This document shows positions 1,651 through 59,617 of a stretch of 64,000 nucleotides of DNA, piece by piece. The stretch is from Chthoniobacterales bacterium (GTDB lineage: Bacteria > Verrucomicrobiota > Verrucomicrobiia > Chthoniobacterales > UBA6821). The first letter of the stretch is position 1, and every line of letters starts with the position of its first letter. The position numbers and the translations under genes are program-made. The notes under the pieces are model-generated. The model did no database searches, was not told the DNA's origin, and saw only the letters and a list, made by a program, of their open reading frames with translations. The DNA lies in NCBI GenBank assembly GCA_019747735.1, contig JAIEQL010000040.1, positions 3,179 through 67,178 on the forward strand, in the 5' to 3' direction.

Positions 1651-1732
1651 ATGACTATCGGCATTTCCTTAACTTTTTTTAGCAGGCCTTACAGCCTATC
1701 GCCTACAGTCCATAGCCTATGACCATCGGCAT
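1651..1732 (+). repeat. Duplicated gene start (atgacYatcggcat x2) flanking a 54-nt insert ending in four AGCCTAT-like heptamers
   Basis: 1651..1664 atgactatcggcat and 1719..1732 atgaccatcggcat match 13/14. The insert ends agcctat cgcctac agtccat agcctat directly at ATG 1719. Confidence 0.8.
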
Positions 1733-2603
1733 CATGGGAGCCATCCCCCAAGAAGTAGAGTTATACCTTGCGCGCTCACTATTTGAGTTTTTCACTGGCT
1801 ATTTTTGTCTCTAGCTTCGTTGTCAGAGCTTACGTTATGTACGCATAGCGTCTCGCTCTTTCGCCTTGCTAGAAACAAAAATCTCAGCGTGAAAAAATCT
1901 CAAATATTAAACGCGCAAGGTATAATCAAGGAAGAGATGCTGATTAAGGAAACGATAGAGCTGGGGGGCGCTTTTTTTACGTTGGGGAGTTGTATGGTTC
2001 TGAGGTGGTGTTGGTCTTTTCACGTATTGGAAAAGTAGCTGCAGCAAGTGTGGCGACAACACTCTTCAATTTTTTTGAAATCGACTTTTTGCTTTTCACT
2101 GGTGTGGCTGGAGCCGTTCATCCTGAACTAAATATCGGTCACATTATGATTGGATCGAAACTCTATCAACATGACATTGATGCAGGTCCTCTCTTTCCAA
2201 AGTTTCACATACCTCTCACGGGACGTGATCACTTTGTAGCTCATGAAGAATTTTTAAAATGCGCAGAGAGCTGTATCAATGATTTTATCAAAGAGCTAGA
2301 ACATCACCTCGAGTCAGCAATAATAGCAGAGTTTTTTGCCGAGCCTCCCAAGCTCCTTCGCGGCACGATCGCCACAGGAGCCCCTTTTATCATGCTGTAG
2401 AAATGGAGGGAGCTGCTGTGGCTCAAGTTTGCCACGACTATGACAAACCATTTTTGATCATTAGAACCATCTCCTACAAAGCCGACCACACGGCCTCGGT
2501 CGATTTTCACAAGTTTATCAAAGTGATCTCCAATCCTTTTTCCAACGGCATTGTTCAAAAACTGTTGCCGGAGTTAATAAAAGTGATGAAGCTTTTGAAA
2601 TAA
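1719..2603 (+). pseudogene. mtnN: 5'-methylthioadenosine/S-adenosylhomocysteine nucleosidase (MtnN/Pfs), multiply disrupted
   Basis: MTIGIMGAIPQEVEL...IKEEMLIKETIELGG...SRIGKVAAAS...FTGVAGA...MEGAAVAQVCHDYDKPFLIIRTIS matches Pfs across three frames. It is broken by a 161-nt MITE insertion (1764..1924), a -1 frameshift in the G-run near 1984..1987, and a TAG at 2398 with about 17 aa missing. Confidence 0.8.
1762..1924 (+). mobile_element. MITE-like element, family B copy 1 (159 bp, perfect 11-bp TIR TACCTTGCGCG, TA target-site duplication)
   Basis: The element spans 1764..1922, with TA at 1762..1763 and 1923..1924. Removing the element plus one TA restores the in-frame Pfs sequence QEVEL-IKEEM. 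Confidence 0.85.
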
Positions 2604-6818: not shown

Positions 6819-7160
6819 TTATTCATTTTTCACATAAACCCAAGCAGAGTTTCCTGAACGGAGTGGAGCATAGACTCTTTTATAATCTTTCACCTCATAG
6901 CAATCTGCTTGGAGGATTTCTTGGCAAGTAACTTCCAACACGGTTCCTTCCACAGCGTCTTGCCCATTGCCAGTAAAAGTCACCATCGGATGAAACTCTT
7001 TTCCGCTCGTTGCTAGCACGTGAGGGTTTGTGATTTTGAGCATCGAGAGCTTGTACCCAACAAGGGCATCTTGAGTACCAGTCAGTTTACGTCCAAAGGT
7101 TGCTAGCTGGACTTCTTCTTGTTGCAACGTTCCATAGGAGAAAAGGTTTTCTGTGTTCAT
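6819..7160 (-). CDS. Gamma-glutamylcyclotransferase (AIG2/GGACT-like) family protein
   Basis: Start MNTENLFSYGTLQ (YGTL motif). The start is moved to Met28 of the track ORF, which removes the overlap with the upstream gene. Confidence 0.55.
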   Translation of the reverse strand: MNTENLFSYGTLQQEEVQLATFGRKLTGTQDALVGYKLSMLKITNPHVLATSGKEFHPMVTFTGNGQDAVEGTVLEVTCQEILQADCYEVKDYKRVYAPLRSGNSAWVYVKNE

Positions 7161-9602: not shown

Positions 9603-10070
9603 TTAACGTGGTCTAGTTCTTGGGAGTATGTGGAAGCCTTCTTTTTTGGCGAGGGCTGCTTGCTTTTGATCAAAGCTAATGAAGGTCTTAATTTTTAGGT
9701 GAAGTGCCGTAGCAATGTGGAGCATATCCATCGTGCGATGTCCCTGAGTGAAGGTATGCTTAGCGCTGAGCCGTTCTGCAAGGCTGTGCACATCGACCCA
9801 ATTGACAATAGGAATGACAAAAGTGCCATTAGCGAAATTTTCATCGAATAATGCCAGCATGGTATCTGCCACCCTTTTTGAAAATACTTGCGAACGATCG
9901 CTCGCGAATCGGAATGCTTGGAGGCGCACTGATTGGCGAAATTCAAAGACTACAAGGGAAGAGAGGTGGATAGAATTGTTGGCAGAAGTAATGAAAGATT
10001 CTGCTAGTTTGTTATTGTCCTGTTCTCGATAAAGAGCACACAAGAAAGAGGTGTCGGCAAAAAAACTCAT
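9603..10070 (-). CDS. vapC: PIN-domain toxin (VapC family)
   Basis: Start MSFFADTSFLCALY. The other acidic PIN positions are FEFRQS, TMDMLHIATA and SFDQKQ. The ATG overlaps the antitoxin stop (TAATG). Confidence 0.7.
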   Translation of the reverse strand: MSFFADTSFLCALYREQDNNKLAESFITSANNSIHLSSLVVFEFRQSVRLQAFRFASDRSQVFSKRVADTMLALFDENFANGTFVIPIVNWVDVHSLAERLSAKHTFTQGHRTMDMLHIATALHLKIKTFISFDQKQAALAKKEGFHILPRTRPR

Positions 10071-10366
10071 TACTCTTCTCCTAATTCCCAAGCTCTCATT
10101 TCTTCCACTTCTTTCATCGTAAAAGGTCGGCGGTTACCCCATATTTTTTTGCGTTGCGCGGCAAAATCAGGCATCTTAAATGGCTTCTTTTTTGTAGCAG
10201 GGGGAGGGGTAAGCTGAGCAAAAATAACTCCATGGCGCGTGATGTTAACGGGTTGTCCATTCTCAATCCAAGCGGAGACACGGCGAAAATTATTTCTTAA
10301 ATCAGCTACTGTGGCAGTTTCAATCGGTGCTTCTTGTTCTTTTATCATGATAGGGAAATCTATCAT
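10070..10366 (-). CDS. Phd/YefM-type antitoxin
   Basis: ATVADLRNNFRRVSAWIENGQPVNITRHGVIFAQL fits the Phd/YefM N-terminal fold pattern. It sits immediately upstream of the PIN gene. Confidence 0.6.
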   Translation of the reverse strand: MIDFPIMIKEQEAPIETATVADLRNNFRRVSAWIENGQPVNITRHGVIFAQLTPPPATKKKPFKMPDFAAQRKKIWGNRRPFTMKEVEEMRAWELGEE

Positions 10367-10409: not shown

Positions 10410-10854
10410 CTAATTAAAATGAGTTGGCAACTTTGGATGAAGATGCTGCTCATAAGCGCGTAAAAGGTCTTCTTTGTGAGTGCGATTAAAGTCAAGGGGT
10501 GGAAGGTCGTGGATAGGATGGAAGGCAATCTCACTTATTTCAATATTGGGTTTTGGAGTTCCATCAATAAGGTGGCAGAGAAGAAAGGCCTTATAGATGG
10601 TAAAAAGCTGTTTGGGATAATTCGCTTTTTCCATCTCTATAATTGAAACAAGTGATTGGGCTCGTACAGAGTAACCTGTCTCCTCAAGAAATTCTCGTTC
10701 TACATTTTCACGAGGAGTCATGTTGATATCAGCCCAGCCGCCAGGCAGCGTCCAGTTTTGAGAAGAGCGTTCTTTTACCAGGAGTACCCTATCTTTTTGA
10801 AAAAGAGCGCGGCGAACATCGATTTTTGGAGTTGTGTAACCCTGTTCTTCAGGC
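10410..10854 (-). pseudogene. Nudix hydrolase (ADP-ribose pyrophosphatase-like), N-terminally truncated with in-frame TAG
   Basis: Nudix box is GGWADINMTPRENVEREFLEETGY. The frame is open upstream only to a TAG at 10855..10857. There is no start codon before Met (10721), which lies inside the Nudix box. Confidence 0.55.
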
Positions 10855-10934
10855 TATTGGAAGTCAGCATGGCTTGGATCGTGGAGAAGCTCACTTTTTT
10901 TCGAAACCGGCACTGAATTGGTTTTATTAACACT

Positions 10935-32579: not shown

Positions 32580-35500
32580 ATGAAAAAACTTCCCCTTGTT
32601 TTTCTCCTGGGCACTCTCGCGCTCGCACCTGTGCGCGTGAGTGCGATGACGGAAGCGGACAAAAAAGAAGAGCATAAAAAGTCGGGTGATTCAAAAGGAA
32701 CCCTCCCAAAAAACACCGACGAGAAATGGCTCAAAGCTCATGAAAAAGCCATTGGGGAAGTTAATAGTCCTCCAGTTAACAACAACACGGAAACTGAGAT
32801 TGAGGTATTTGTTGAGAAGGGTGAAATCATCGAGGATAACACTCTGAAACCGACTTCCAATGCTGATGCTCAACCCAACTCGTCACTAGTTAACGCTGAT
32901 GAAGAAAGTGAAAAGGAAGATCTTTTCAATCTAGATGTTTTAGAACAAAGACTACAAGAGGCTCGAGAGGTCGTTGCTGATTTACGAGGAAAGGGGACTG
33001 CGCTTTCAGAACAAGAACTCAGCGGTCTTTATCAAAAGTGGACTAATCGATACGAACGTTACGAAAAAAAGTCAGATATTTTTGAGCGAACGAATAACAT
33101 TGGAACCATCGCAGGGCAGCAAATTGAAGAGCGACTAAAAAAGCTTTTAAAAACTTCTGCTGAGGCTATGCAAGCGCTTAAGCAAAGCTTAGAAAACATT
33201 ACTCAAGGTTGCGCAACACGCACTGATGATGTCGGCCACTTTCACTTTAAAAAAGAGGAACCTAACTTAGAAGCGCTTGTTAGTTCCTACGATTACAGCA
33301 CCACAGAGAATCATTCAGTCTTTTGGACAGGATGGCATCCCAATTCTTCTCAATGCAATTTTGAGCGAGCTAAAGAATATGCAACACGCACTAATAAAAA
33401 AGTTTTAGAGATAACTCCAGGAGGAGAGAGGCTGGGAGCACAGGGTTTTCATAATCCAGAGTCTTACCTTAATAAGCGTGATGCCGATTTTATTTGGGGA
33501 GTTGCTTCTAGGAGATTTGTTGAAGGAGCTTCGGGACATGTGGTCGCTTTTGTGTTAGAGAAAGTCGATCCCTTTACAACTTATCGCAAAATGGAAAAGC
33601 CAGTATTGAAGAGCAAGGAAACGGCTTTCTTGAGCGAAGTTATTGTTAAGCGAGATCAGAAGCTATTGCTCACAGAGGCTGAGCAAGAGTTATTTGAGCG
33701 CGAGCAAGCAGTAGAAAAAAAGCTTCATCCTCTTTTTCAAAACGTCAGAACTGCATGGGAGAAGATAGGGAATTATTCCGCCTTTCATCCCGATAACATT
33801 CGCGACTTTTTAGGGAGCATTGATGTTAAGAACCAATCGACCTCAGTCCAGCAGGAGCTCTCTCAGTTTGCTTCCCAGCTAAATCCCTTTACTAAAAAAG
33901 TGAAGGCTCTCTCCGAGGCTTGGGATGAGCTTCGTAAGGCCATTTACAGTTTTCAGCATGAGGGTTTAGAAAATGCACATATTCAGCAAGTGAGTAAGGT
34001 GCGAGAAAAATTTCGCGAGTTAGAGCAGCTTGAGACGGTTTCTAAAACATGGAGTGAAGAATATGACCGCTTTAGGGAGGCTATGCAGTTTTTTGATTAT
34101 CAAATTTTCAAAGCTTATCAAGAGAGGGGCGAAATGGACAAAGCAGCTCGATGGAAAGAAGAGACGAGGATTTATGAAGAAAAACAACAACAACAAATGC
34201 TACAGCAATCTGCTGCACAATTTATCAGAGGGAAGATTATCACAGGGCTTTCTCACTTTGATGACTCTCAAGATTCAAAAAAAGAGTGCTTCCAACAAGA
34301 AGTCTCCATTGATGATATGCCTCCTCTTTTTTCTCAAGAGAAACAATCAGGAACAGTTATTCCAGAAACACCTCCCTATTTGAAGAGCTTCAATAGATTA
34401 AAATTCATTAATCCAATGTTTGCTCTTATAAGGCTGCTTGGCGATTTGCAACAATACATAAAACCAATTGAAGAAAAGGAAGGGTTAGCCAAAAGTTTTT
34501 TTATAACGAGTCCATTGCTAGATAATTACAGGACTTTCTTTGGTAGGCCTACTTATAAAGAGACTATCAATTTTCTTGTCGAGAAATTAGAAGAGGTTCA
34601 AGAATCAAAAATTGAAGAAAGTCTCAATAGTATTACGAAAGACAATGCTATCCTCCAAAGTTACAGCACGACTGCTGAGCTAAAAAATCTCTTAGCTTGG
34701 ATAAAAGAGGAGCATGGTAAATACCGACAAGAAAAACAATGCCTTAAAGAACACGCTGAATCTATTCGAGATGATGAAAAGACAGACTATTCTGACTTTG
34801 ACTGTTGGATATATAAAAAGAAAAAAGAAGAACTCTCACGCCTAGAAAATGAGAAGGAACTTTTGCCTAGTCTATCGTCAAGAATTGACGCTGTCATTTT
34901 AGAAATAGAGAAAACAACAAAAATAGCAAACGACGACTATCATTATACAATAAAAAAACTTACTCCTGAAGCTAGACATGAAGCTGCCATTGCTGAAGGA
35001 GAGAACAGGATTGAACAAGCTGATGCAGCTATGGAACAAAGTGAAGGAAGCTCTTTTTCTAAAAAAGCTACTAAAGAAGATCCTTATGCACCTTATCAAA
35101 AGTTTTATAACTTACTGGACATCTTTGATAAAAAAACAAAACAGCATGCAGAGGCTACTAAAGAAACAATTCGTGCTTACAAAGATACGATTGATGTTTA
35201 CAAAACGCCCCCTAAGGAAAACGGGGAAGAAGTCTCTCCCGCCATTCCTTACGCAGAATGTTTTGAAAGTACTCAGTGTTTAAATGAGGAAAACTTATTA
35301 CTAATAGGAAATGGGGGAAAGAGAACTTTATCAAACAACAGACTGGAAGATATTGTAAAAAAAGATAGTGATAAGGCGAAGGAAAAGGAAAAGGAAGTAA
35401 TTAATAAAAGCTCTTTTTGGGAATATCGAGTTTGGGGTTCTCCTAGCCTTAATGAAGCACGTGAAAATGTTCAAGCTGCTGAAAAACAAATTGAAAGACG

Positions 35501-35966
35501 TGAGAATATTTCCAGGAAGATTACAGAACAAGCAACAGAAATTCAGAAGACTCAAAACACGTTAGCTCAAAAAAAAGAAGCTGAAACAGAGCTTGCTAAA
35601 GAAAAAGAAAAAGTTACAAAGCAAGCTGAAGAAGAGCGACAAAAGACCTTAAAAGAAAACCAAAAAGAGATAGAAAAATTTTCAAAAAAACATGAGAAAG
35701 ATTTGAAAGATTTGTCTTGCGAACTCTCTAATCAGGAAAGCTTAGAGCAACATAATAAGCACATAAAAAGCAGAATAGTCAATCTTAGTAAAGAGATAAA
35801 AGAAAAAAAAGATGAGATAAAAGAGATAAGAGAAAAAAATAATATAACTACTGATACACCCCTTCTTGATCTCTATAATGGAATCAAAAGTTTGTTTTCT
35901 TGTCCTTCGCATATAACATCTAATGAGGTGAAATGTGCACCACCTCCAGAAGATTTAAATAATTAG
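32580..35966 (+). CDS. Secreted 1128-aa coiled-coil protein with an ADP-ribosyl cyclase/CD38-like domain (about aa 215-358)
   Basis: Signal peptide is MKKLPLVFLLGTLALAPVRVSA. Motifs VFWTGW, EYATRTNKKVLEITPGG, FIWGVASRRFVEGASGHVVAFVL and TTYRKMEKPVL parallel the Aplysia cyclase / CD38 motifs. The rest is K/E-rich helical sequence. Confidence 0.7.
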   Translation: MKKLPLVFLLGTLALAPVRVSAMTEADKKEEHKKSGDSKGTLPKNTDEKWLKAHEKAIGEVNSPPVNNNTETEIEVFVEKGEIIEDNTLKPTSNADAQPNSSLVNADEESEKEDLFNLDVLEQRLQEAREVVADLRGKGTALSEQELSGLYQKWTNRYERYEKKSDIFERTNNIGTIAGQQIEERLKKLLKTSAEAMQALKQSLENITQGCATRTDDVGHFHFKKEEPNLEALVSSYDYSTTENHSVFWTGWHPNSSQCNFERAKEYATRTNKKVLEITPGGERLGAQGFHNPESYLNKRDADFIWGVASRRFVEGASGHVVAFVLEKVDPFTTYRKMEKPVLKSKETAFLSEVIVKRDQKLLLTEAEQELFEREQAVEKKLHPLFQNVRTAWEKIGNYSAFHPDNIRDFLGSIDVKNQSTSVQQELSQFASQLNPFTKKVKALSEAWDELRKAIYSFQHEGLENAHIQQVSKVREKFRELEQLETVSKTWSEEYDRFREAMQFFDYQIFKAYQERGEMDKAARWKEETRIYEEKQQQQMLQQSAAQFIRGKIITGLSHFDDSQDSKKECFQQEVSIDDMPPLFSQEKQSGTVIPETPPYLKSFNRLKFINPMFALIRLLGDLQQYIKPIEEKEGLAKSFFITSPLLDNYRTFFGRPTYKETINFLVEKLEEVQESKIEESLNSITKDNAILQSYSTTAELKNLLAWIKEEHGKYRQEKQCLKEHAESIRDDEKTDYSDFDCWIYKKKKEELSRLENEKELLPSLSSRIDAVILEIEKTTKIANDDYHYTIKKLTPEARHEAAIAEGENRIEQADAAMEQSEGSSFSKKATKEDPYAPYQKFYNLLDIFDKKTKQHAEATKETIRAYKDTIDVYKTPPKENGEEVSPAIPYAECFESTQCLNEENLLLIGNGGKRTLSNNRLEDIVKKDSDKAKEKEKEVINKSSFWEYRVWGSPSLNEARENVQAAEKQIERRENISRKITEQATEIQKTQNTLAQKKEAETELAKEKEKVTKQAEEERQKTLKENQKEIEKFSKKHEKDLKDLSCELSNQESLEQHNKHIKSRIVNLSKEIKEKKDEIKEIREKNNITTDTPLLDLYNGIKSLFSCPSHITSNEVKCAPPPEDLNN

Positions 35967-51338: not shown

Positions 51339-52067
51339 ATGGGACGCCAATGGCTCTTAGCAAAACGTGAGGTTTCTTCACTTAGAAAATCAAAGACAAC
51401 GGGCAAATTTGTTCGTGAAATTACTATTGCTGCACGTCAAGGGGGAGCTGATCCTGCGGCCAATGCACGCCTAGCAGCTGCGATTGAAAAAGCAAAAAAA
51501 GAGAGTGTTTCACGTGATGTTATTGAACGTGCCATCAGCAAAGGAGCTGGTGTTGGCGGCGAGAAGGCAACGCTCGAGCATATTCTTTTTGAAGGATACG
51601 CACCTCACAAAGTTCCTGTGATCGTGGAAGTCTTCACCGATAACAACAATCGAACGGCTCCTGAGATTCGTGTTCTTTTCCGCGATGCTCAGCTCGGGAA
51701 TCCTGGAAGCAATAAATTTCTTTTTGACCACGTTGGTTTAGTGGAGGCTTATACGACTAATCTCAAAGCCGATCTTGAAGAAGCCGCCATCGAAGCGGGA
51801 GCAAATGAAGTGGAACGACTCACTCATGATCAAAATGATGATATCCCTTTAGAGGTCACCGGAGCCCGTTTCATCACAGATCGCACGACGACTCACGCCG
51901 TTTCCCAATGGCTTCTAGAACAGGGATGGAAAGTCGTTACGAGTGAAATTGGTTACTTGGCAAAAAACTTTCCAGTGCTCGACGAGAATCAACGTGGAGA
52001 GGTGGGGGCTTTTCTTCAAGCTCTGGAAGATCACGATGATGTGCATCGTGTTTGGGCGGCACTATAG
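51339..52067 (+). CDS. yebC: YebC/PmpR-family transcriptional regulator
   Basis: The pattern AKR......K....GK........AAR.GG.DP..N.RL is present. 242 aa. Confidence 0.9.
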   Translation: MGRQWLLAKREVSSLRKSKTTGKFVREITIAARQGGADPAANARLAAAIEKAKKESVSRDVIERAISKGAGVGGEKATLEHILFEGYAPHKVPVIVEVFTDNNNRTAPEIRVLFRDAQLGNPGSNKFLFDHVGLVEAYTTNLKADLEEAAIEAGANEVERLTHDQNDDIPLEVTGARFITDRTTTHAVSQWLLEQGWKVVTSEIGYLAKNFPVLDENQRGEVGAFLQALEDHDDVHRVWAAL

Positions 52068-52229
52068 TGTATTAAATTGAGAAGGGTACACTATAAGCTT
52101 GCGCTTTTTTCCTAGGACTGAGTTTTAAGCCCTTACGTTATCTTTAGATAGCGCTTCGATCTTAAAGCCTTGTCCTAAGAAAAAAATCTCAGCGCTTCTA
52201 ACGCGCCCTTTTCAATTCAATCCACTATA
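52063..52229 (+). mobile_element. MITE-like element, family B copy 2 (TIR TAGTGKATTRAATTGARAAGGG, TA flanks)
   Basis: The element spans 52065..52227, flanked by TA at 52063..52064 and 52228..52229. Its first three nt are the yebC stop TAG. It shares the conserved about 65-nt core with 1764..1922. Confidence 0.8.
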
Positions 52230-52281: not shown

Positions 52282-52444
52282 TATATTCAAATTACTTAGA
52301 AAGTACATGAAAGAACGCAGAGATTTTTAGAAAAGGCAAGGCCGAAGAGCGAGCGCTATATCTTATAACGGGAGTAATGAGAACGCGGTCTTTTCCTGAA
52401 AAGATCAAGTCAATTTTGTGTGATTTCTAAGTAATTTGACTATA
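52282..52444 (-). mobile_element. MITE-like element, family B copy 3 (reverse orientation, different TIR)
   Basis: Arms are tatattcaaattacttagaaa / tttctaagtaatttgactata. The reverse complement of the interior carries CCCGTTAT..ATAGCGCTCGCTCTTCGGCCTTGC..AAAAATCTCTGCG. Confidence 0.7.
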
Positions 52445-52451
52445 ATATGGC

Positions 52452-53135
52452 ATGAACTTCACTTACTACGGTCACTCTTGTTTTCAAATCGATGTTGCGG
52501 GAAAGAAGCTTCTTTTTGATCCTTTTATCACGCCCAATCCACTTGCTTCTGGTGTTGATATCACTCAACTAAAACCCGATTACATTTTTTTATCCCATGG
52601 GCATTATGATCATGTTGCCGATGTAGAGCGTATTGCCAGTCAAAGTGAAGCCGTTATTGTGGGATGTTATGAGGTTGTCGAATGGTTTCGTGCTAAGGGG
52701 TTCGAGAAAAATCACAGCATGAACATCGGTGGCTCTTGGGAGTTTGATTTTGGAAAGGTCACGCTTACCCCAGCAGTTCATTCTAGCAGTATGCCAGATG
52801 GTTCTTATGGAGGGGTTGCTGGCGGTTTTTTAATCAAAACAGAGGAAGGCTTTTTTTATTACAGCGGTGATACGGCTCTTTTTTCTGACATGAAATTGTT
52901 AGCAAGCAAGGGAGCATTAGCGTTTGCAGTCCTTTGCATCGGGGGTAATTTTACCATGAACGCCAAAGAGGCTCTGCAAGGTGCTCAGTGGCTAGGATGC
53001 AAAGAAATCATAGGCGTACATTATGATACTTTTCCTGCGATTAAAATAAATCACACTGCAGCACAGAATCGCTTTCAAAAGGAAGGGAGTCAGCTTCACT
53101 TGCTGCCTATAGGAGAAAGTTTATCTTTTTCATAA
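52452..53135 (+). CDS. Metallo-beta-lactamase-fold hydrolase (UPF0173 family)
   Basis: YYGHSCF, the LSHGHYDH motif, and 227 aa. Confidence 0.8.
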   Translation: MNFTYYGHSCFQIDVAGKKLLFDPFITPNPLASGVDITQLKPDYIFLSHGHYDHVADVERIASQSEAVIVGCYEVVEWFRAKGFEKNHSMNIGGSWEFDFGKVTLTPAVHSSSMPDGSYGGVAGGFLIKTEEGFFYYSGDTALFSDMKLLASKGALAFAVLCIGGNFTMNAKEALQGAQWLGCKEIIGVHYDTFPAIKINHTAAQNRFQKEGSQLHLLPIGESLSFS

Positions 53136-54916
53136 TGCCAAAAACTTCCTTTTTTCGTAAATCCCATCTGCCCAAAAAAATCTCGGCAGATAAAATTGGC
53201 AGGAGTTTCTATGACCTCAGCAGTAATCACAGCGCCATTGAGATGGTGGATGATGCGCGTGAGTACTGACTTCTCGATATCTAGTCCAAGGACACGGCAG
53301 CTCATGACAAACTGTAACAAATGATGATCCTGAATAAGAACCACACCTACTAAGCCATAGGTAGTGAATTTATCTGCTACTTGGAACACATAGAAAAACC
53401 CTTTTTTCTTAAAAAAATCAGTACATTCTTCCGGGGTCCATCGTTTGCCAGTGGTGTTAAATTGATTTGTTTTGTTCAACAATTCAAAAGCACGAGCAAA
53501 ATGAGGGTGTGCCGTATGATCAATTTTCATGATTTCAATACGGAGTTGAAGTGATTCTAAAAATTCCTCTCGCGTTGTGAAACTCGCTTTCTGTGCATGT
53601 TCACGTTGCGCTTGAATAGATTGAGTGCGTTGAGAGGATTCTTGGGAAATGTGGGGCGCTTGTAGCTCTGGGGCCCAAAGTAACACTCTTTTGATATGAT
53701 AAAGATCCGCTCCCAATGTTCTAATTTCTGGAAAAGCTCGTTGCACCTTCTCTCGTTCCACAGGATTATCATCAAGAAAAAGAGCGTTGCCAGGAAGAAG
53801 ATGTACTTCTTGTAAGATTTCTTGAATGTTGTCGCACTTATCTCTTCTGTTAATTTTTTTGACGACAAAATCTTCTGGCCTTAAATAATTTTGAAAAAGA
53901 GTTTGCCATTCTTTAAGAATCAGCTCCTCCTCATTGTTGCTAGCAATGGCAAGGAGAATCCCTCTTTTTTTTAGAAACAGAAGAGCCTCCATCACTCCTA
54001 AAGGCCATCCTTCTAGCCCTGGCCCTAGCATTCCCTCTTCGGCAAAAACTCCTCGCCAGAGCGTATCGTCAAGATCGCAAATGACTATTTTGATGGCATC
54101 TTGTTGACGGAGGGTCTTGTAGTGAGCGGCGATTTCATGCCAGAGGGCATCAATGAAGCTGTCGGCTCTTAAAGTGTACCCTTGGGAATATCTTTTAGGG
54201 GGATGTAATCTTTTTTGGTCGTGCCGAAAATCACTATCACTTACGAGGGCTCCATGACTGGCGACGTGAAAAATATCATCTTGAATATAGCGACGCCCTA
54301 GTGAAGCCGCTATTTCATTGGCATCGATAAAGTAGACATTTGATCTTGCATGAACTAACTCCGAAAGCCTTTTGTTGAGCTGATCTATGTAATAAGAGAT
54401 ATTTCTTAAATCGTAAGCAGGGAGAAAGCGGCCCATTAAGTTTTGTTGAGGAAGGAAAAAATTGGTAACAAAAGTCGTGAGGTGATGTTCTGTATTATAT
54501 TGAAGAAGATAATCAAAAAATAACTCTAGGAGTTTTACTGATTCTTCAAAAGCTTCCCTGTGTCCCTTGATGTCGTGATAATCTAGATGCAAATAAGAGC
54601 TCTCGTTCATAATAACCCTGAGCGGGATCTGCACTATCTGAAAAGAATATTCATCAATCGCTTTTGGAGGTGAACTGGGAAGGGGCGCAATGTGGTGGGT
54701 GACTATATGATCAACAGAGGCCTCTTTACTGGCTGTAAAAACTTTCCTTTTAAATTGTAATGCAAGCGCGTTTGAAAAACAGGCACCTATAAGAAGTATA
54801 TTTTTAATCGGCACTTCTTCTCTGCTAAGATCAATCGGAGCCCTGTGATAAAGCTCATCACGGAGTGAGGGTGAGGGCTTCTTGTTTTTATTGCTGACTA
54901 GCTGTAAGGGTATCAT
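53096..54916 (-). CDS. FkbH-like protein (HAD-IIIC phosphatase core with N- and C-terminal extension domains)
   Basis: The HAD motif I context is VICDLDDTLWRGV, with FLDDNP as motif IV. The 606-aa length and tripartite layout match FkbH-domain proteins. Confidence 0.7.
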   Translation of the reverse strand: MIPLQLVSNKNKKPSPSLRDELYHRAPIDLSREEVPIKNILLIGACFSNALALQFKRKVFTASKEASVDHIVTHHIAPLPSSPPKAIDEYSFQIVQIPLRVIMNESSYLHLDYHDIKGHREAFEESVKLLELFFDYLLQYNTEHHLTTFVTNFFLPQQNLMGRFLPAYDLRNISYYIDQLNKRLSELVHARSNVYFIDANEIAASLGRRYIQDDIFHVASHGALVSDSDFRHDQKRLHPPKRYSQGYTLRADSFIDALWHEIAAHYKTLRQQDAIKIVICDLDDTLWRGVFAEEGMLGPGLEGWPLGVMEALLFLKKRGILLAIASNNEEELILKEWQTLFQNYLRPEDFVVKKINRRDKCDNIQEILQEVHLLPGNALFLDDNPVEREKVQRAFPEIRTLGADLYHIKRVLLWAPELQAPHISQESSQRTQSIQAQREHAQKASFTTREEFLESLQLRIEIMKIDHTAHPHFARAFELLNKTNQFNTTGKRWTPEECTDFFKKKGFFYVFQVADKFTTYGLVGVVLIQDHHLLQFVMSCRVLGLDIEKSVLTRIIHHLNGAVITAEVIETPANFICRDFFGQMGFTKKGSFWHYEKDKLSPIGSK

Positions 54917-57619: not shown

Positions 57620-59617
57620 CTACTCCATCAAACATTCGCCATCTTCTGAAAAGTTCGGTGAGTAGTCTCCCTTCATCGAAAAGGGATTATAATTGTAGTG
57701 CAACATGACAGCCCAAGAGGTAGAAACCGTGCTTGGTAAAGGATTCGCATACCAATGAAACGGAAGTAAGTAGCGTTTGCTGGCGTAGAGATAAGCCAAT
57801 TTAGTAGTAGGAATAAAAACTAAGGAAGAATAATCCTGTGGTCTTACGGAATCAAATTGAGTTTCTCCAGGATACTGATCGGTGCGCAAGCTCTGGAGGT
57901 GTTGAGCCATGCTATCATGATCTTTTTGGAGGCTAGCAACAAATTCACGTGCCTTATTCTGATTCTCTTCTGAGGGGGTGTTAGAGGTAATGACATTCCC
58001 ATATTGAGTGATAAGTGCCCGCACCATATTGATAGCGCCTGCAGTCCACTCAGCAGATAAAATTCCGGTATGGTCCTCTGGATGGACGTTTCCATAACCA
58101 TCAAGATCCCGGTTCGAATAGCCAACACCCCAAAGCTCTCCATTCACTTGATAAGCACCCCAAATTTTTACATTTTCCCAAAGATAATAAGCAGCTCCAA
58201 ATCCATGAGCCTTATCAATGAGAGGCTGCCCTAGTACAGCCAATCCCCATGTGTTGACGTCAACAGCTCGTAATTCGCAAGTATCAGGATGAAGATCTCG
58301 AATTGATTTCCATGGCTTATTTGCTGTGGGATTATTGGCTTCTCCTGATAAGAAAAATTCACCATGTTCCAGCCCTAATGGATGAACATCCCATGCATCG
58401 TTTATTAAAAAAGACAACAATCCTTCTGTGTGATGTGTTTTGTGCTCTTTACAAAAACAATCTCCGCCGTGAATCATAATTTTAATGATAGCCAGCGCGT
58501 TCTCAATTTTTCTTTTTTTCTCAATGTCATTGACAACCGTAGTAAAAATATTCCCTACATTTCTCTTTTTCTCCAGATCATTTAGAAGCGTGCTGCTTAA
58601 TTGTTGTTGGGTTAGTAACGTTAGCACTTTTTTAAAAACAAGGAGTCCTGCTAGTGCCGAAATATTGTTTTCGATGGAAACAGTGTAAGGGGTAATCGAT
58701 GCTTTCTTAGGATCGTTGTTTTGAACAAGACTTGCTGGAGCATAATAAATGGCGCCTGTTTCTGACTGCATTTTTTGAAATGTTGGTAACATGCTTAGGG
58801 CGCTTTGAATCGCTGGAGAATCAAAAGAAACAGGTTTTTTTGTTGACTGACTTTCAAGTAATGCTGCGTGGAGAGGACCAAGTAAAAAAGCCCATGCATT
58901 TTCTCCTGTGATGGGATTCCAATCGCGCCAAGGAACAGGGGTAGGAGATTCATTTAGAGGATCAGAGTTTTCATAAGAACGGGGAACCTGTCTGAAATAA
59001 TAGGCCTGACTGACATCATTAATAATATGTTCATTGTAACAAAATTTTCCTTCTGTATTATAAGTGGCCCTGTTTTTTCCTAACGAAATTTCTGAAGAAT
59101 TACCATCATACCCAGCGGCCAATAATTTATTTTCATTTCTTGCAAGAGAAAATAAATTCTCTCCATTAGCGTCTACTACATAGTCATGGACAGCTGCTAG
59201 GCTCAGGGCGATTTGCCACGTTGCTGCATCATAAATATTACAGCCGCTATGAATGTTAACTCGCTCTAAAACTTGCTCTGAAACGCTATCTAATTTCATT
59301 TGATCGCGTGCTTGCGTTGGATCAAGCCCTCCTTTTGGAACATAGAGATTTTCTGCATACTGAGACCAATAATCTGCAGTGCAGTAGTAACTCAGCGGCA
59401 GCGGCAATCCACTAAGAGCTCCAGCTGTGCCCATGTAAGTGACTCCTGCTTGATCAACATCAGATGTTAAAAAACAAATGATTTTTTGAATATCCTCTTT
59501 GGAGTCACACGAATGGAAAGGAAGGGTCGGTTCTGTGCCCTCAAGTGCCGCGGCGAAGATTAGGCTATTTAAAAAGAATAAGAGCAGAAGCTGTTTAACC
59601 TTTTTTTCCAGTCGCAT
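57620..59617 (-). CDS. Secreted 665-aa protein, possibly an (alpha/alpha)6 six-hairpin glycosidase-like fold
   Basis: Signal peptide present. Recurrent helix-hairpin Trp motifs (DAATWQIAL, GENAWAFLL, VNTWGLAVL, SAEWTAGAI, STSWAVML). Internal duplication LNDLEKKR / VNDIEKKR. Confidence 0.4.
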   Translation of the reverse strand: MRLEKKVKQLLLLFFLNSLIFAAALEGTEPTLPFHSCDSKEDIQKIICFLTSDVDQAGVTYMGTAGALSGLPLPLSYYCTADYWSQYAENLYVPKGGLDPTQARDQMKLDSVSEQVLERVNIHSGCNIYDAATWQIALSLAAVHDYVVDANGENLFSLARNENKLLAAGYDGNSSEISLGKNRATYNTEGKFCYNEHIINDVSQAYYFRQVPRSYENSDPLNESPTPVPWRDWNPITGENAWAFLLGPLHAALLESQSTKKPVSFDSPAIQSALSMLPTFQKMQSETGAIYYAPASLVQNNDPKKASITPYTVSIENNISALAGLLVFKKVLTLLTQQQLSSTLLNDLEKKRNVGNIFTTVVNDIEKKRKIENALAIIKIMIHGGDCFCKEHKTHHTEGLLSFLINDAWDVHPLGLEHGEFFLSGEANNPTANKPWKSIRDLHPDTCELRAVDVNTWGLAVLGQPLIDKAHGFGAAYYLWENVKIWGAYQVNGELWGVGYSNRDLDGYGNVHPEDHTGILSAEWTAGAINMVRALITQYGNVITSNTPSEENQNKAREFVASLQKDHDSMAQHLQSLRTDQYPGETQFDSVRPQDYSSLVFIPTTKLAYLYASKRYLLPFHWYANPLPSTVSTSWAVMLHYNYNPFSMKGDYSPNFSEDGECLME

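Follow-up and report, generated by a model that had tools for sequence, protein, structure and literature searches.

The nucleosidase MtnN (also called Pfs; MTAN in Escherichia coli) removes the inhibitory by-products S-adenosylhomocysteine (SAH), 5'-methylthioadenosine (MTA), and 5'-deoxyadenosine. Inactivation of bacterial genes by MITEs (miniature inverted-repeat transposable elements) has been reviewed, with Correia elements in gonococcal coding sequences and MITEs in avrA/hopX1 as examples (PMC10969869). Correia elements have terminal repeats that begin tatagtggattaaattt… (PMC5039591), and TATA-ended hairpin MITEs described as "similar in structure" to them are present in Ca. Thiomargarita nelsonii, for which the parental insertion sequence was not identifiable (PMC4853749). 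Here we analyze a 64,000-nucleotide stretch of a contig from a Chthoniobacterales bacterium (JAIEQL010000040.1; hereafter "the window"), in which positions 1719-2603 are very probably a recently formed mtnN pseudogene bearing a MITE insertion, the loss of one base from a G-run, a 49-nt deletion, and replacements of three aspartates. In the proposed course of events, a non-autonomous 159-bp hairpin MITE would have entered the gene at a TA where codon 15 meets codon 16, a single G would have dropped out of a G-run at codon 30, and a 49-nt deletion would have taken 16 codons from the stretch that joins the adenine-binding FI segment to the catalytic VEME motif.

Lesions and recent history of mtnN

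A preliminary description of this locus held that the MtnN frame is recognizable from end to end, and profile searches agree. When the pieces proposed there are conceptually joined, the repaired 240-residue product scores 207.6 bits against NCBIfam model NF004079 (5'-methylthioadenosine/adenosylhomocysteine nucleosidase), for which the curated cut-off is 169, matches Pfam family PF01048 (PNP_UDP_1), and aligns end to end with E. coli MTAN structures over residues 1-230 at 36% identity. The repaired reading is 53-79% identical to the metagenomic homologues in our alignment, and the nearest database proteins, which are 249-257 residues long, are 58-63% identical to it. One of these proteins (P0002) is the product of an intact mtnN open reading frame (ORF) of 249 codons on L076, a contig from a JGI metagenome. 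Moreover, the window and L076 have the same gene order, consisting of fitA-like, PIN (vapC), mtnN, a small ORF, SnoaL-like, AAA/DUF4143, and choloylglycine-hydrolase-like (CBAH) genes, and the L076 gene is therefore an intact orthologue. The closest relative that we found, L001, is a Logan contig of run SRR12417981 in which the fitA-PIN-mtnN order is also present; its DNA is ~75% identical to that of the window and its repaired protein is 85% identical. The continuous ORF of 230-260 codons that is expected of MtnN is absent from the window, where the coding sequence lies in four pieces in three frames and the longest remaining reading frame has 136 codons. The features of the locus are as follows.

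1719..1763, plus strand: mtnN remnant, codons 1-15 (MTIGIMGAIPQEVEL), with the counterpart of E. coli Glu12 among them, from translation and alignment to homologues and E. coli MTAN
1762..1763, no strand: left copy of the TA target-site duplication, recognized from empty sites in relatives
1764..1922, plus strand: 159-bp MITE, subtype "C", a hairpin over its whole length with a core homologous to other family members
1923..1924, no strand: right copy of the TA target-site duplication
1925..1968, plus strand: mtnN codons 16-30 (IKEEMLIKETIELGG), second frame
1963..1968, plus strand: run of six G residues (G6), site of the -1 frameshift (ancestral CTG GGN GGN CGC), from the homologue consensus and Logan contig L008 at 100% identity
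1969..2390, plus strand: mtnN codons 31 to ~171 (RFFYVGELYG...TGAPFI), third frame, matching Pfam PNP_UDP_1 profile positions 39-153
2140..2142, plus strand: CAC, Asp to His, GDIVIG changed to GHIMIG (E. coli D88), in a column at least 95% conserved
2380..2385, plus strand: GCC CCT, TGD(Q/R)F changed to TGAPF, the Asp codon being GCC at 2380-2382 (E. coli D149), beside the deletion junction
2389..2393, plus strand: junction of the 49-nt deletion (16 codons and 1 nt) at 2390/2391, from nucleotide alignment; reproduced by L008 and L009
2391..2603, plus strand: C-terminal part of mtnN (HAVEMEGAAVAQV...KLLK, stop TAA at 2601-2603) in the original ATG frame, matching Pfam profile positions 174-223
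2398..2400, plus strand: TAG, the stop of the shifted frame; read ancestrally, the bases belong to GTA GAA
2475..2477, plus strand: TAC, ISD changed to ISY, catalytic Asp (E. coli D197) to Tyr

The insertion site reads GAGT-TA-(TACCTTGCGCG...CGCGCAAGGTA)-TA-ATC. Removing 161 nt, namely the 159-bp element and one TA, gives GAG TTA ATC AAG GAA GAG ATG (...EVEL/IKEEM...), a reading that is collinear, codon for codon, with L001 (GAC CTG ATT AAG GAG GAG ATG), with L076, and with the contig of another Chthoniobacterales metagenome-assembled genome (MAG), L075, and that aligns with E. coli MTAN without gaps. The orthologous site is empty in the relatives, reading GAC CTG ATT AAG in L001 and GAC TTG ATG in L076. 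The inverted arms of the element (1761-1792 and 1894-1925) are 32 nt long and 88% complementary, and the entire element is 71% self-complementary; when folded as RNA, it forms one long hairpin of -68.9 kcal/mol (z = -10.6 relative to shuffled sequences). It is short and non-coding, every frame being closed within the mtnN reading, and it closes the mtnN frame itself after 31 codons. A 159-bp MITE with a TA duplication at 1762..1924 had been proposed in the preliminary description, and these observations bear out that proposal exactly.

The -1 frameshift that had also been reported does exist, although its location has to be revised from the run of four G residues at 1984-1987 to the G6 run at 1963-1968. 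If the shift is placed at 1984-1987, the frame gives GGAFFTLG, whereas the other frame across 1963-1998 reads GGRFFYVGELYG and agrees with the homologue consensus GGRTFYxGxLHG. Read onward from the G6 run, the sequence is GG-RFFYVGELYGSEVV, where the consensus is GGRTFYxGxLHGxDVV. The Arg of the GGR consensus, which is conserved in at least 95% of 58 homologues, is retained in this reading, and no additional mismatch arises at conserved columns. This match to the consensus, including the Arg residue, places the lesion, the loss of one base in or at the G-run, about 20 nt upstream of its earlier position.

Farther downstream, nucleotide alignment of the window with L001, L076, and L075 shows 49 consecutive gap columns between TTTAT and CATGCTGT. 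GAPFI finishes at 2391 in one frame and HAVEMEG begins at 2391 in the original ATG frame, so that C2391 is common to the Ile codon of the first and the His codon of the second. The lost residues are the equivalents of E. coli 153-168, and the conserved His-Ala-Val ahead of EMEG is retained. No convincing flanking microhomology that would explain the deletion was found in the sequences of the relatives. About 17 residues had previously been noted as missing here together with a TAG at 2398. The residues are indeed missing, but the TAG is neither a separate lesion nor a nonsense mutation; since it is merely the first stop in the shifted frame, the two form one event, and the TAG is a by-product of the 49-nt deletion.

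In addition to these frame-breaking changes, an alignment with the 58 homologues, in which 47 columns are at least 95% conserved, shows that the window departs from the consensus at three of the 47, all of them Asp. The change of ISD to ISY at 2475-2477 had been seen before, and the TAC codon is present with the Asp aligned to E. coli D197; D88H and D149A are newly recognized. Of the four lesions originally listed, the MITE and D197Y thus stand, the frameshift site and the TAG have been corrected, and two substitutions have been added. Equivalents of E. coli Glu12 and of the VEME motif (Glu172/Glu174) are kept in the remnant, and Tyr replaces the equivalent of Asp197. From the structural literature on E. 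coli MTAN we take Glu12, Glu174, and Asp197 to be the catalytic triad, with Asp197 presumably the general acid that protonates N7 of adenine. The best match in the Protein Data Bank, 1z5o, carries Asn at the D197 position, which is consistent with this presumed role. Other aligned sequences also show up to three departures at conserved columns, but these are conservative (T/V, V/L, A/V). Asp columns make up six of the 47, and the chance that three departures would all fall on Asp is 20/16215, a pattern that was noticed post hoc. As a separate post hoc observation with P0008 as outgroup, five of 12 amino-acid changes unique to the window remove Asp (D88H, D142H, D145E, D168A, and D200Y).

These losses appear to be recent. 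For the repaired mtnN, comparison of the window with L001 gives a nonsynonymous divergence (dN) of 0.078, a synonymous divergence (dS) of ~1.7, which is saturated, and dN/dS = 0.045; the corresponding ratios for the neighboring fitA-like gene (0.088) and vapC (0.134) are both above that of mtnN. Judged by these ratios, strong purifying selection acted on mtnN during the greater part of the divergence that separates the window from L001. With the L076 protein as outgroup, however, 16 unique amino-acid changes fall on the window lineage and five on that of L001 (p = 0.027), and with P0003 as outgroup the counts are 14 and four (p = 0.031); more distant outgroups give an excess in the same direction that is not significant. 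This lineage-specific excess fits a recent release from constraint in the window lineage. Taken with the intact syntenic orthologue on L076, the low dN/dS and the 16 versus five unique changes support the earlier view of a gene "caught in the act" of decay. The locus can be read as a dated snapshot of gene loss, in which recent strong purifying selection has given way to three indels and three replacements of Asp in the active-site region. The MITE insertion may postdate, rather than cause, the loss of function.

Two related contigs show lesions of their own. L001 carries a single frameshift in a T7 run after LFNFF (1015-1022), and a related Logan contig, L082 of run SRR27012973, has a single A-run frameshift at ~2915-2925 (SRIGK*), mtnN being otherwise intact in each. 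Either repeated loss of mtnN in the clade or assembly errors would account for them.

The inserted element and its family

When the element served as query in a sensitive search of the window, two further members of its family came to light, both outside mtnN.

52063..52229, plus strand: intergenic subtype "B" copy, the second of the family, 167 bp (TATA to TATA)
52282..52444, minus strand: subtype "A" copy, the third of the family, 163 bp, with 83% identity to a 36-copy consensus from another MAG

All three copies in the window measure 163-167 bp from TATA to TATA and differ in their outer ends, and they have in common the core …CGTTAT…TAGCG.CTCG.TCTT…CCTTG…AAAAATCTC…. Copies 52063-52229 and 52282-52444 adjoin in one intergenic region. 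The TATAG end of the former provides the TAG stop (52065-52067) of a YebC-like ORF (51339-52067), and the latter ends 8 nt before the ATG (52452) of a gene for a metallo-beta-lactamase-fold protein.

When GTDB representative genomes were scanned for a core pattern of 20 bases, 64 loci matched (L011-L074), of which ~40 are in MAG SKS3.bin34 (JAJZSL01) and five or six in an uncultured Chthoniobacter MAG (CAYOAN01); the remaining loci lack element structure and are about as numerous as expected by chance. The true matches are units of 165-167 bp, and 36 distinct full copies average 88% identity to their consensus. Two types of end occur among them, A (TATAGTCAAATTACTTAG…) and B (TATAGTGTATTAAATTGAAAAGG…), together with A/B hybrids (L019 and L074). 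Global pairwise identity was rejected as a measure of relatedness because shuffled sequences equal it, and local scores against shuffles were used instead. On this basis, the core of the mtnN copy matches L062, a subtype B copy from the Chthoniobacter MAG, with a Smith-Waterman z of 26 over shuffles, and blastn gives E = 1.7e-13 for the homology of the element. A family copy is also present in L075 at 6917-7079, 140 nt downstream of its intact mtnN. Given the copies in the window, the ~40 copies in one MAG, and the z of 26 for the core, we conclude that the insert belongs to a multi-copy, lineage-wide MITE family. The mtnN element would have been mobilized in trans by a transposase that duplicates TA. 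It has no match among PLSDB plasmids.

A segment of 1.2-2 kb is repeated in SKS3.bin34 at 82-87% identity (L050 2502-4163, L052 1-1295, and L065 1823-3960). It is the one long multi-copy segment seen in the related loci, and it encodes a 540-residue protein with Pro/Thr-rich and repetitive regions that, on inspection of the sequence, does not appear transposase-like.

Alternative explanations

Logan assemblies, which were produced with an assembler different from that used for the MAG, bear directly on whether the lesions exist in the cells. Contigs from five runs (SRR15085116, 120, 121, 126, and 128) match the window to exactly 1786, a base that lies 23 nt inside the element. In four samples, a contig extends from 1895, 28 nt before the element ends, to 6902 at 100% identity and passes through the G6 run and the deletion; another contig begins at 2012. 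Because these contigs cross both ends of the element and the small lesions, they recover each junction of the element as well as G6 and the 49-nt deletion. An artefact, with an intact gene in the cells and lesions that reflect a collapsed repeat, a homopolymer error, or a chimeric join, is therefore extremely improbable, even though the source sequence is a MAG, one lesion sits in a homopolymer, and the Logan contigs break within the element. A different assembler recovered the junctions, G6, and the deletion at 100% identity from several runs; an insertion of 161 nt with a perfect TA duplication and three changed Asp codons are atypical of assembly error; and the indels have no part in the excess of amino-acid changes specific to the lineage. 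Several points nevertheless weigh against reading the locus as a pseudogene interrupted by a transposed MITE. Every Logan contig that runs into the element from its left side ends at 1786, the next one starting at 1895, which points to a branching assembly graph within the element. At k = 31, a repeat with the TA duplications as its boundaries would predict breaks at 1791 and 1895, and the observed left end is 5 nt short of this prediction. A variant, an inversion, or other heterogeneity inside the element at 1786/1895 is thus possible, and there may be a minority allele at the element. The reads and the MAG, moreover, probably share one sample series, so that a read-level error in G6 has to be considered, unlikely as it is. 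As regards the element itself, an exact search for the termini of the mtnN insert (TATACCTTGCGCG...) gave no second copy, with 0 matches among GTDB representative genomes and three in JGI metagenomes, all due to chance and lacking element structure; multi-copy status is therefore shown for the family and not for this subtype. Finally, no candidate transposase or autonomous partner was seen in ~370 kb of related loci, and pairs of terminal repeats occur there only ~166 bp apart.

Some of these observations would be explained if the broken allele coexisted in the population with an allele that differs within the element or lacks it, the MAG showing one haplotype. Five Logan assemblies stop at the same base and the next contig resumes at 1895, which suggests a graph branch, and an unrelated low-coverage ENA contig from the same species ends at 1762, which is the insertion site. 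We nonetheless consider such heterogeneity unlikely. In four samples, no branch interrupts the contig between 1895 and 6902; since it carries both the G6 frameshift and the 49-nt deletion, these lesions appear to be dominant or fixed. An intact allele would be recognized by the empty-site sequence (GAGTTAATC / GAAGTAGAGTTAATCAAGGAAG), a G7 run, and the presence of the 49 nt; an exact search for the element-free junction of the same species (a 22-mer) gave 0 matches in JGI metagenomes, although this is weak evidence. A different objection concerns how the insert moved. Recombination or a RAYT-type HUH enzyme could have spread it as a REP/REPIN-like element or some other palindrome, given that the whole element is one long hairpin, that three subtypes have a common core but different termini with A/B hybrids, which is odd for terminal recognition by a transposase, and that no autonomous partner has turned up in the related loci. 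HUH-type single-strand transposition, however, leaves no target duplication, whereas the clean 2-bp TA duplication relative to the empty orthologous site is the signature of staggered-cut DDE transposition; the uniform units of 163-167 bp with TATA...TATA ends also argue against this mode of spread, which we judge to be quite improbable. It is scarcely credible that the locus is still functional, whether through the 136-residue fragment, through fragments that reassemble, or through a recoding or slippage product of the G-run. G-runs can slip in transcription or translation, and NCBI lists the ORF at 1990-2400 (GenBank MBX9743256.1) as an ordinary "5'-methylthioadenosine/S-adenosylhomocysteine nucleosidase" and not as a pseudogene. 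This 136-residue piece, however, matches only positions 39-153 of the 233 in the Pfam PNP_UDP_1 profile and lacks the equivalents of Glu12, Glu174, and Asp197. Three separate frame changes would need to be bypassed, the element has in-frame stops, and even the fully repaired reading still lacks 16 residues and carries D197Y, D88H, and D149A. With a longest frame of 136 codons and no fragment that contains all of the catalytic residues, no active enzyme can be made. We therefore retain the reading of a recently formed pseudogene, with the consequence that automated metabolic reconstructions of this MAG would score MtnN as present by way of MBX9743256.1 though the gene is dead.

Genomic context and comparison with known systems

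The preliminary description had suggested that loss of mtnN fits a genome under relaxed selection, as in a host-associated lifestyle, and the 64 kb of the window give this suggestion no support. The G+C content is 43%, a crude count of non-overlapping ORFs covers 88.5% of the sequence as coding, and Pfam scans of ~50 window ORFs show that nearly all of the neighboring genes are full-length and typical of a metabolically versatile organism. Among the ORFs with Pfam matches are UvrC, a MiaB/RimO-type radical-SAM enzyme, two GH1 glycosidases, two SBP_bac_5 binding proteins, NuoB/C, RNase D, NadC, a Glu/Leu dehydrogenase, AccA, TypA, QueC/QueF, and ABC transporters. In view of the full-length neighbors and the high coding fraction, no general genome decay is seen in the window. 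The flanking proteins VapC (1207-1647) and YciI (2606-2902) are identical to GenBank MBX9743255.1 and MBX9743257.1, respectively, and the GenBank locus tags of window proteins start K2W99_. Two PIN-domain toxin/antitoxin pairs lie within 10 kb (905-1647 and 9603-10366), and the fitA-like/vapC pair directly upstream of mtnN keeps this position in L001 and L076. For a Nudix-family ORF on the minus strand (10410-10860), the Pfam NUDIX match begins ~28 residues upstream of the first start codon in an N-terminal extension that contains stops, and this may be a second decayed or truncated gene. Three long ORFs have no Pfam match at the thresholds used, namely 32580-35966 (1128 residues), 53096-54916 (606 residues), and 57620-59617 (665 residues). 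Rfam searches of the whole window gave nothing above gathering scores, the window has no tRNA genes, and a scan of 1600-2700 for promoters and terminators gave no more hits than expected by chance.

Some of the neighboring genes bear on the consequences of losing MtnN, among which there may be the altered methionine salvage and SAH detoxification put forward in the preliminary description. The window encodes PF05958 and PF00590 methyltransferases that use S-adenosylmethionine (SAM) and a radical-SAM methylthiotransferase; from general reaction knowledge, we take the former to generate SAH and the latter SAH and 5'-deoxyadenosine. Neither Pfam scans of the ~50 ORFs nor tblastn queries with human AHCY and MTAP and E. 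coli LuxS revealed ahcY, mtnP, luxS, or a second mtnN (PNP_UDP_1) within the 64-kb window. Because producers of SAH and 5'-deoxyadenosine are present and mtnN is dead, another route (AhcY, MtnP, or deaminases) is needed and is predicted to be encoded elsewhere in the MAG. SAH, MTA, and 5'-deoxyadenosine would accordingly be disposed of by functions that probably lie outside the window.

The decay of mtnN is ordinary in kind and will not surprise a specialist; what is of modest interest is that the public annotation misleads and that a MITE family has ends partly like those of Correia elements, and in the literature searched we found no description of such a family in Verrucomicrobiota. Relative to MtnN/Pfs as represented by E. 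coli MTAN, NF004079 / TIGR01704, and PF01048, the window copy aligns end to end, keeps Glu12 and VEME, and has the neighborhood of its intact orthologue, but it lacks a continuous ORF on account of the 161-nt insertion, the -1 frameshift, and the 49-nt deletion, and three Asp residues are lost. As in MITE gene inactivation elsewhere, a small non-autonomous element has landed in a coding sequence and abolishes the gene, with the difference that the insertion in the window is one of three frame-breaking lesions. The family is like the Ca. Thiomargarita nelsonii MITEs in its TATA termini, its large hairpins, and its lack of an identifiable parental insertion sequence; those MITEs belong to another sequence family and another phylum, and the two are likened by description and not by sequence.

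The likeness to the Correia elements (CREE / nemis) of Neisseria goes further. Common to both are a size of ~155-166 bp, TATA...TATA ends, a TA duplication, a hairpin over the whole element, modular or hybrid ends, and insertion in intergenic regions and occasionally in coding sequences. With its TA duplication and 159 bp, the mtnN copy falls in line with the TA duplication and the size expected of Correia elements (~105-155 bp being the range applied). Its ends differ, in that a Correia terminal repeat is 26-28 nt long and begins TATAGTGGATTAA..., whereas the mtnN copy begins TATACCTTGCGCG, and its host is verrucomicrobial and not Neisseria. Both termini of the subtype B copy (52063-52078 and 52214-52229), however, match the Correia 16-mer TATAGTGGATTAAATT with one mismatch each, inverted and 167 bp apart; the full 29-nt Correia repeat has no match when up to three mismatches are allowed. 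A genuine Correia copy of 155 bp was taken from a Neisseria gonorrhoeae record and compared by Smith-Waterman alignment; the z values are 0.1 (mtnN copy), 2.0 (subtype A consensus), and 2.9-3.2 (subtype B), so that overall similarity is weak or absent, and the best local segment in subtypes A and B is CTTCG..GCCTTGTCCT at the equivalent, collinear place. The family resembles Correia elements in form, but overall homology to the Correia consensus gives no ground for assigning it to them. Since the outer 16-nt termini, the TA duplication, the size, the modular ends, and the collinear GCCTTGTCCT are nonetheless common to both, we propose, as a possible though doubtful relationship, that the ~160-bp TATA-ended hairpins of Chthoniobacterales might be evolutionary relatives of the Correia elements of Neisseria. 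If this is true, the enzyme that moves Correia elements would have counterparts in a distant phylum, and comparing the hosts could identify it.

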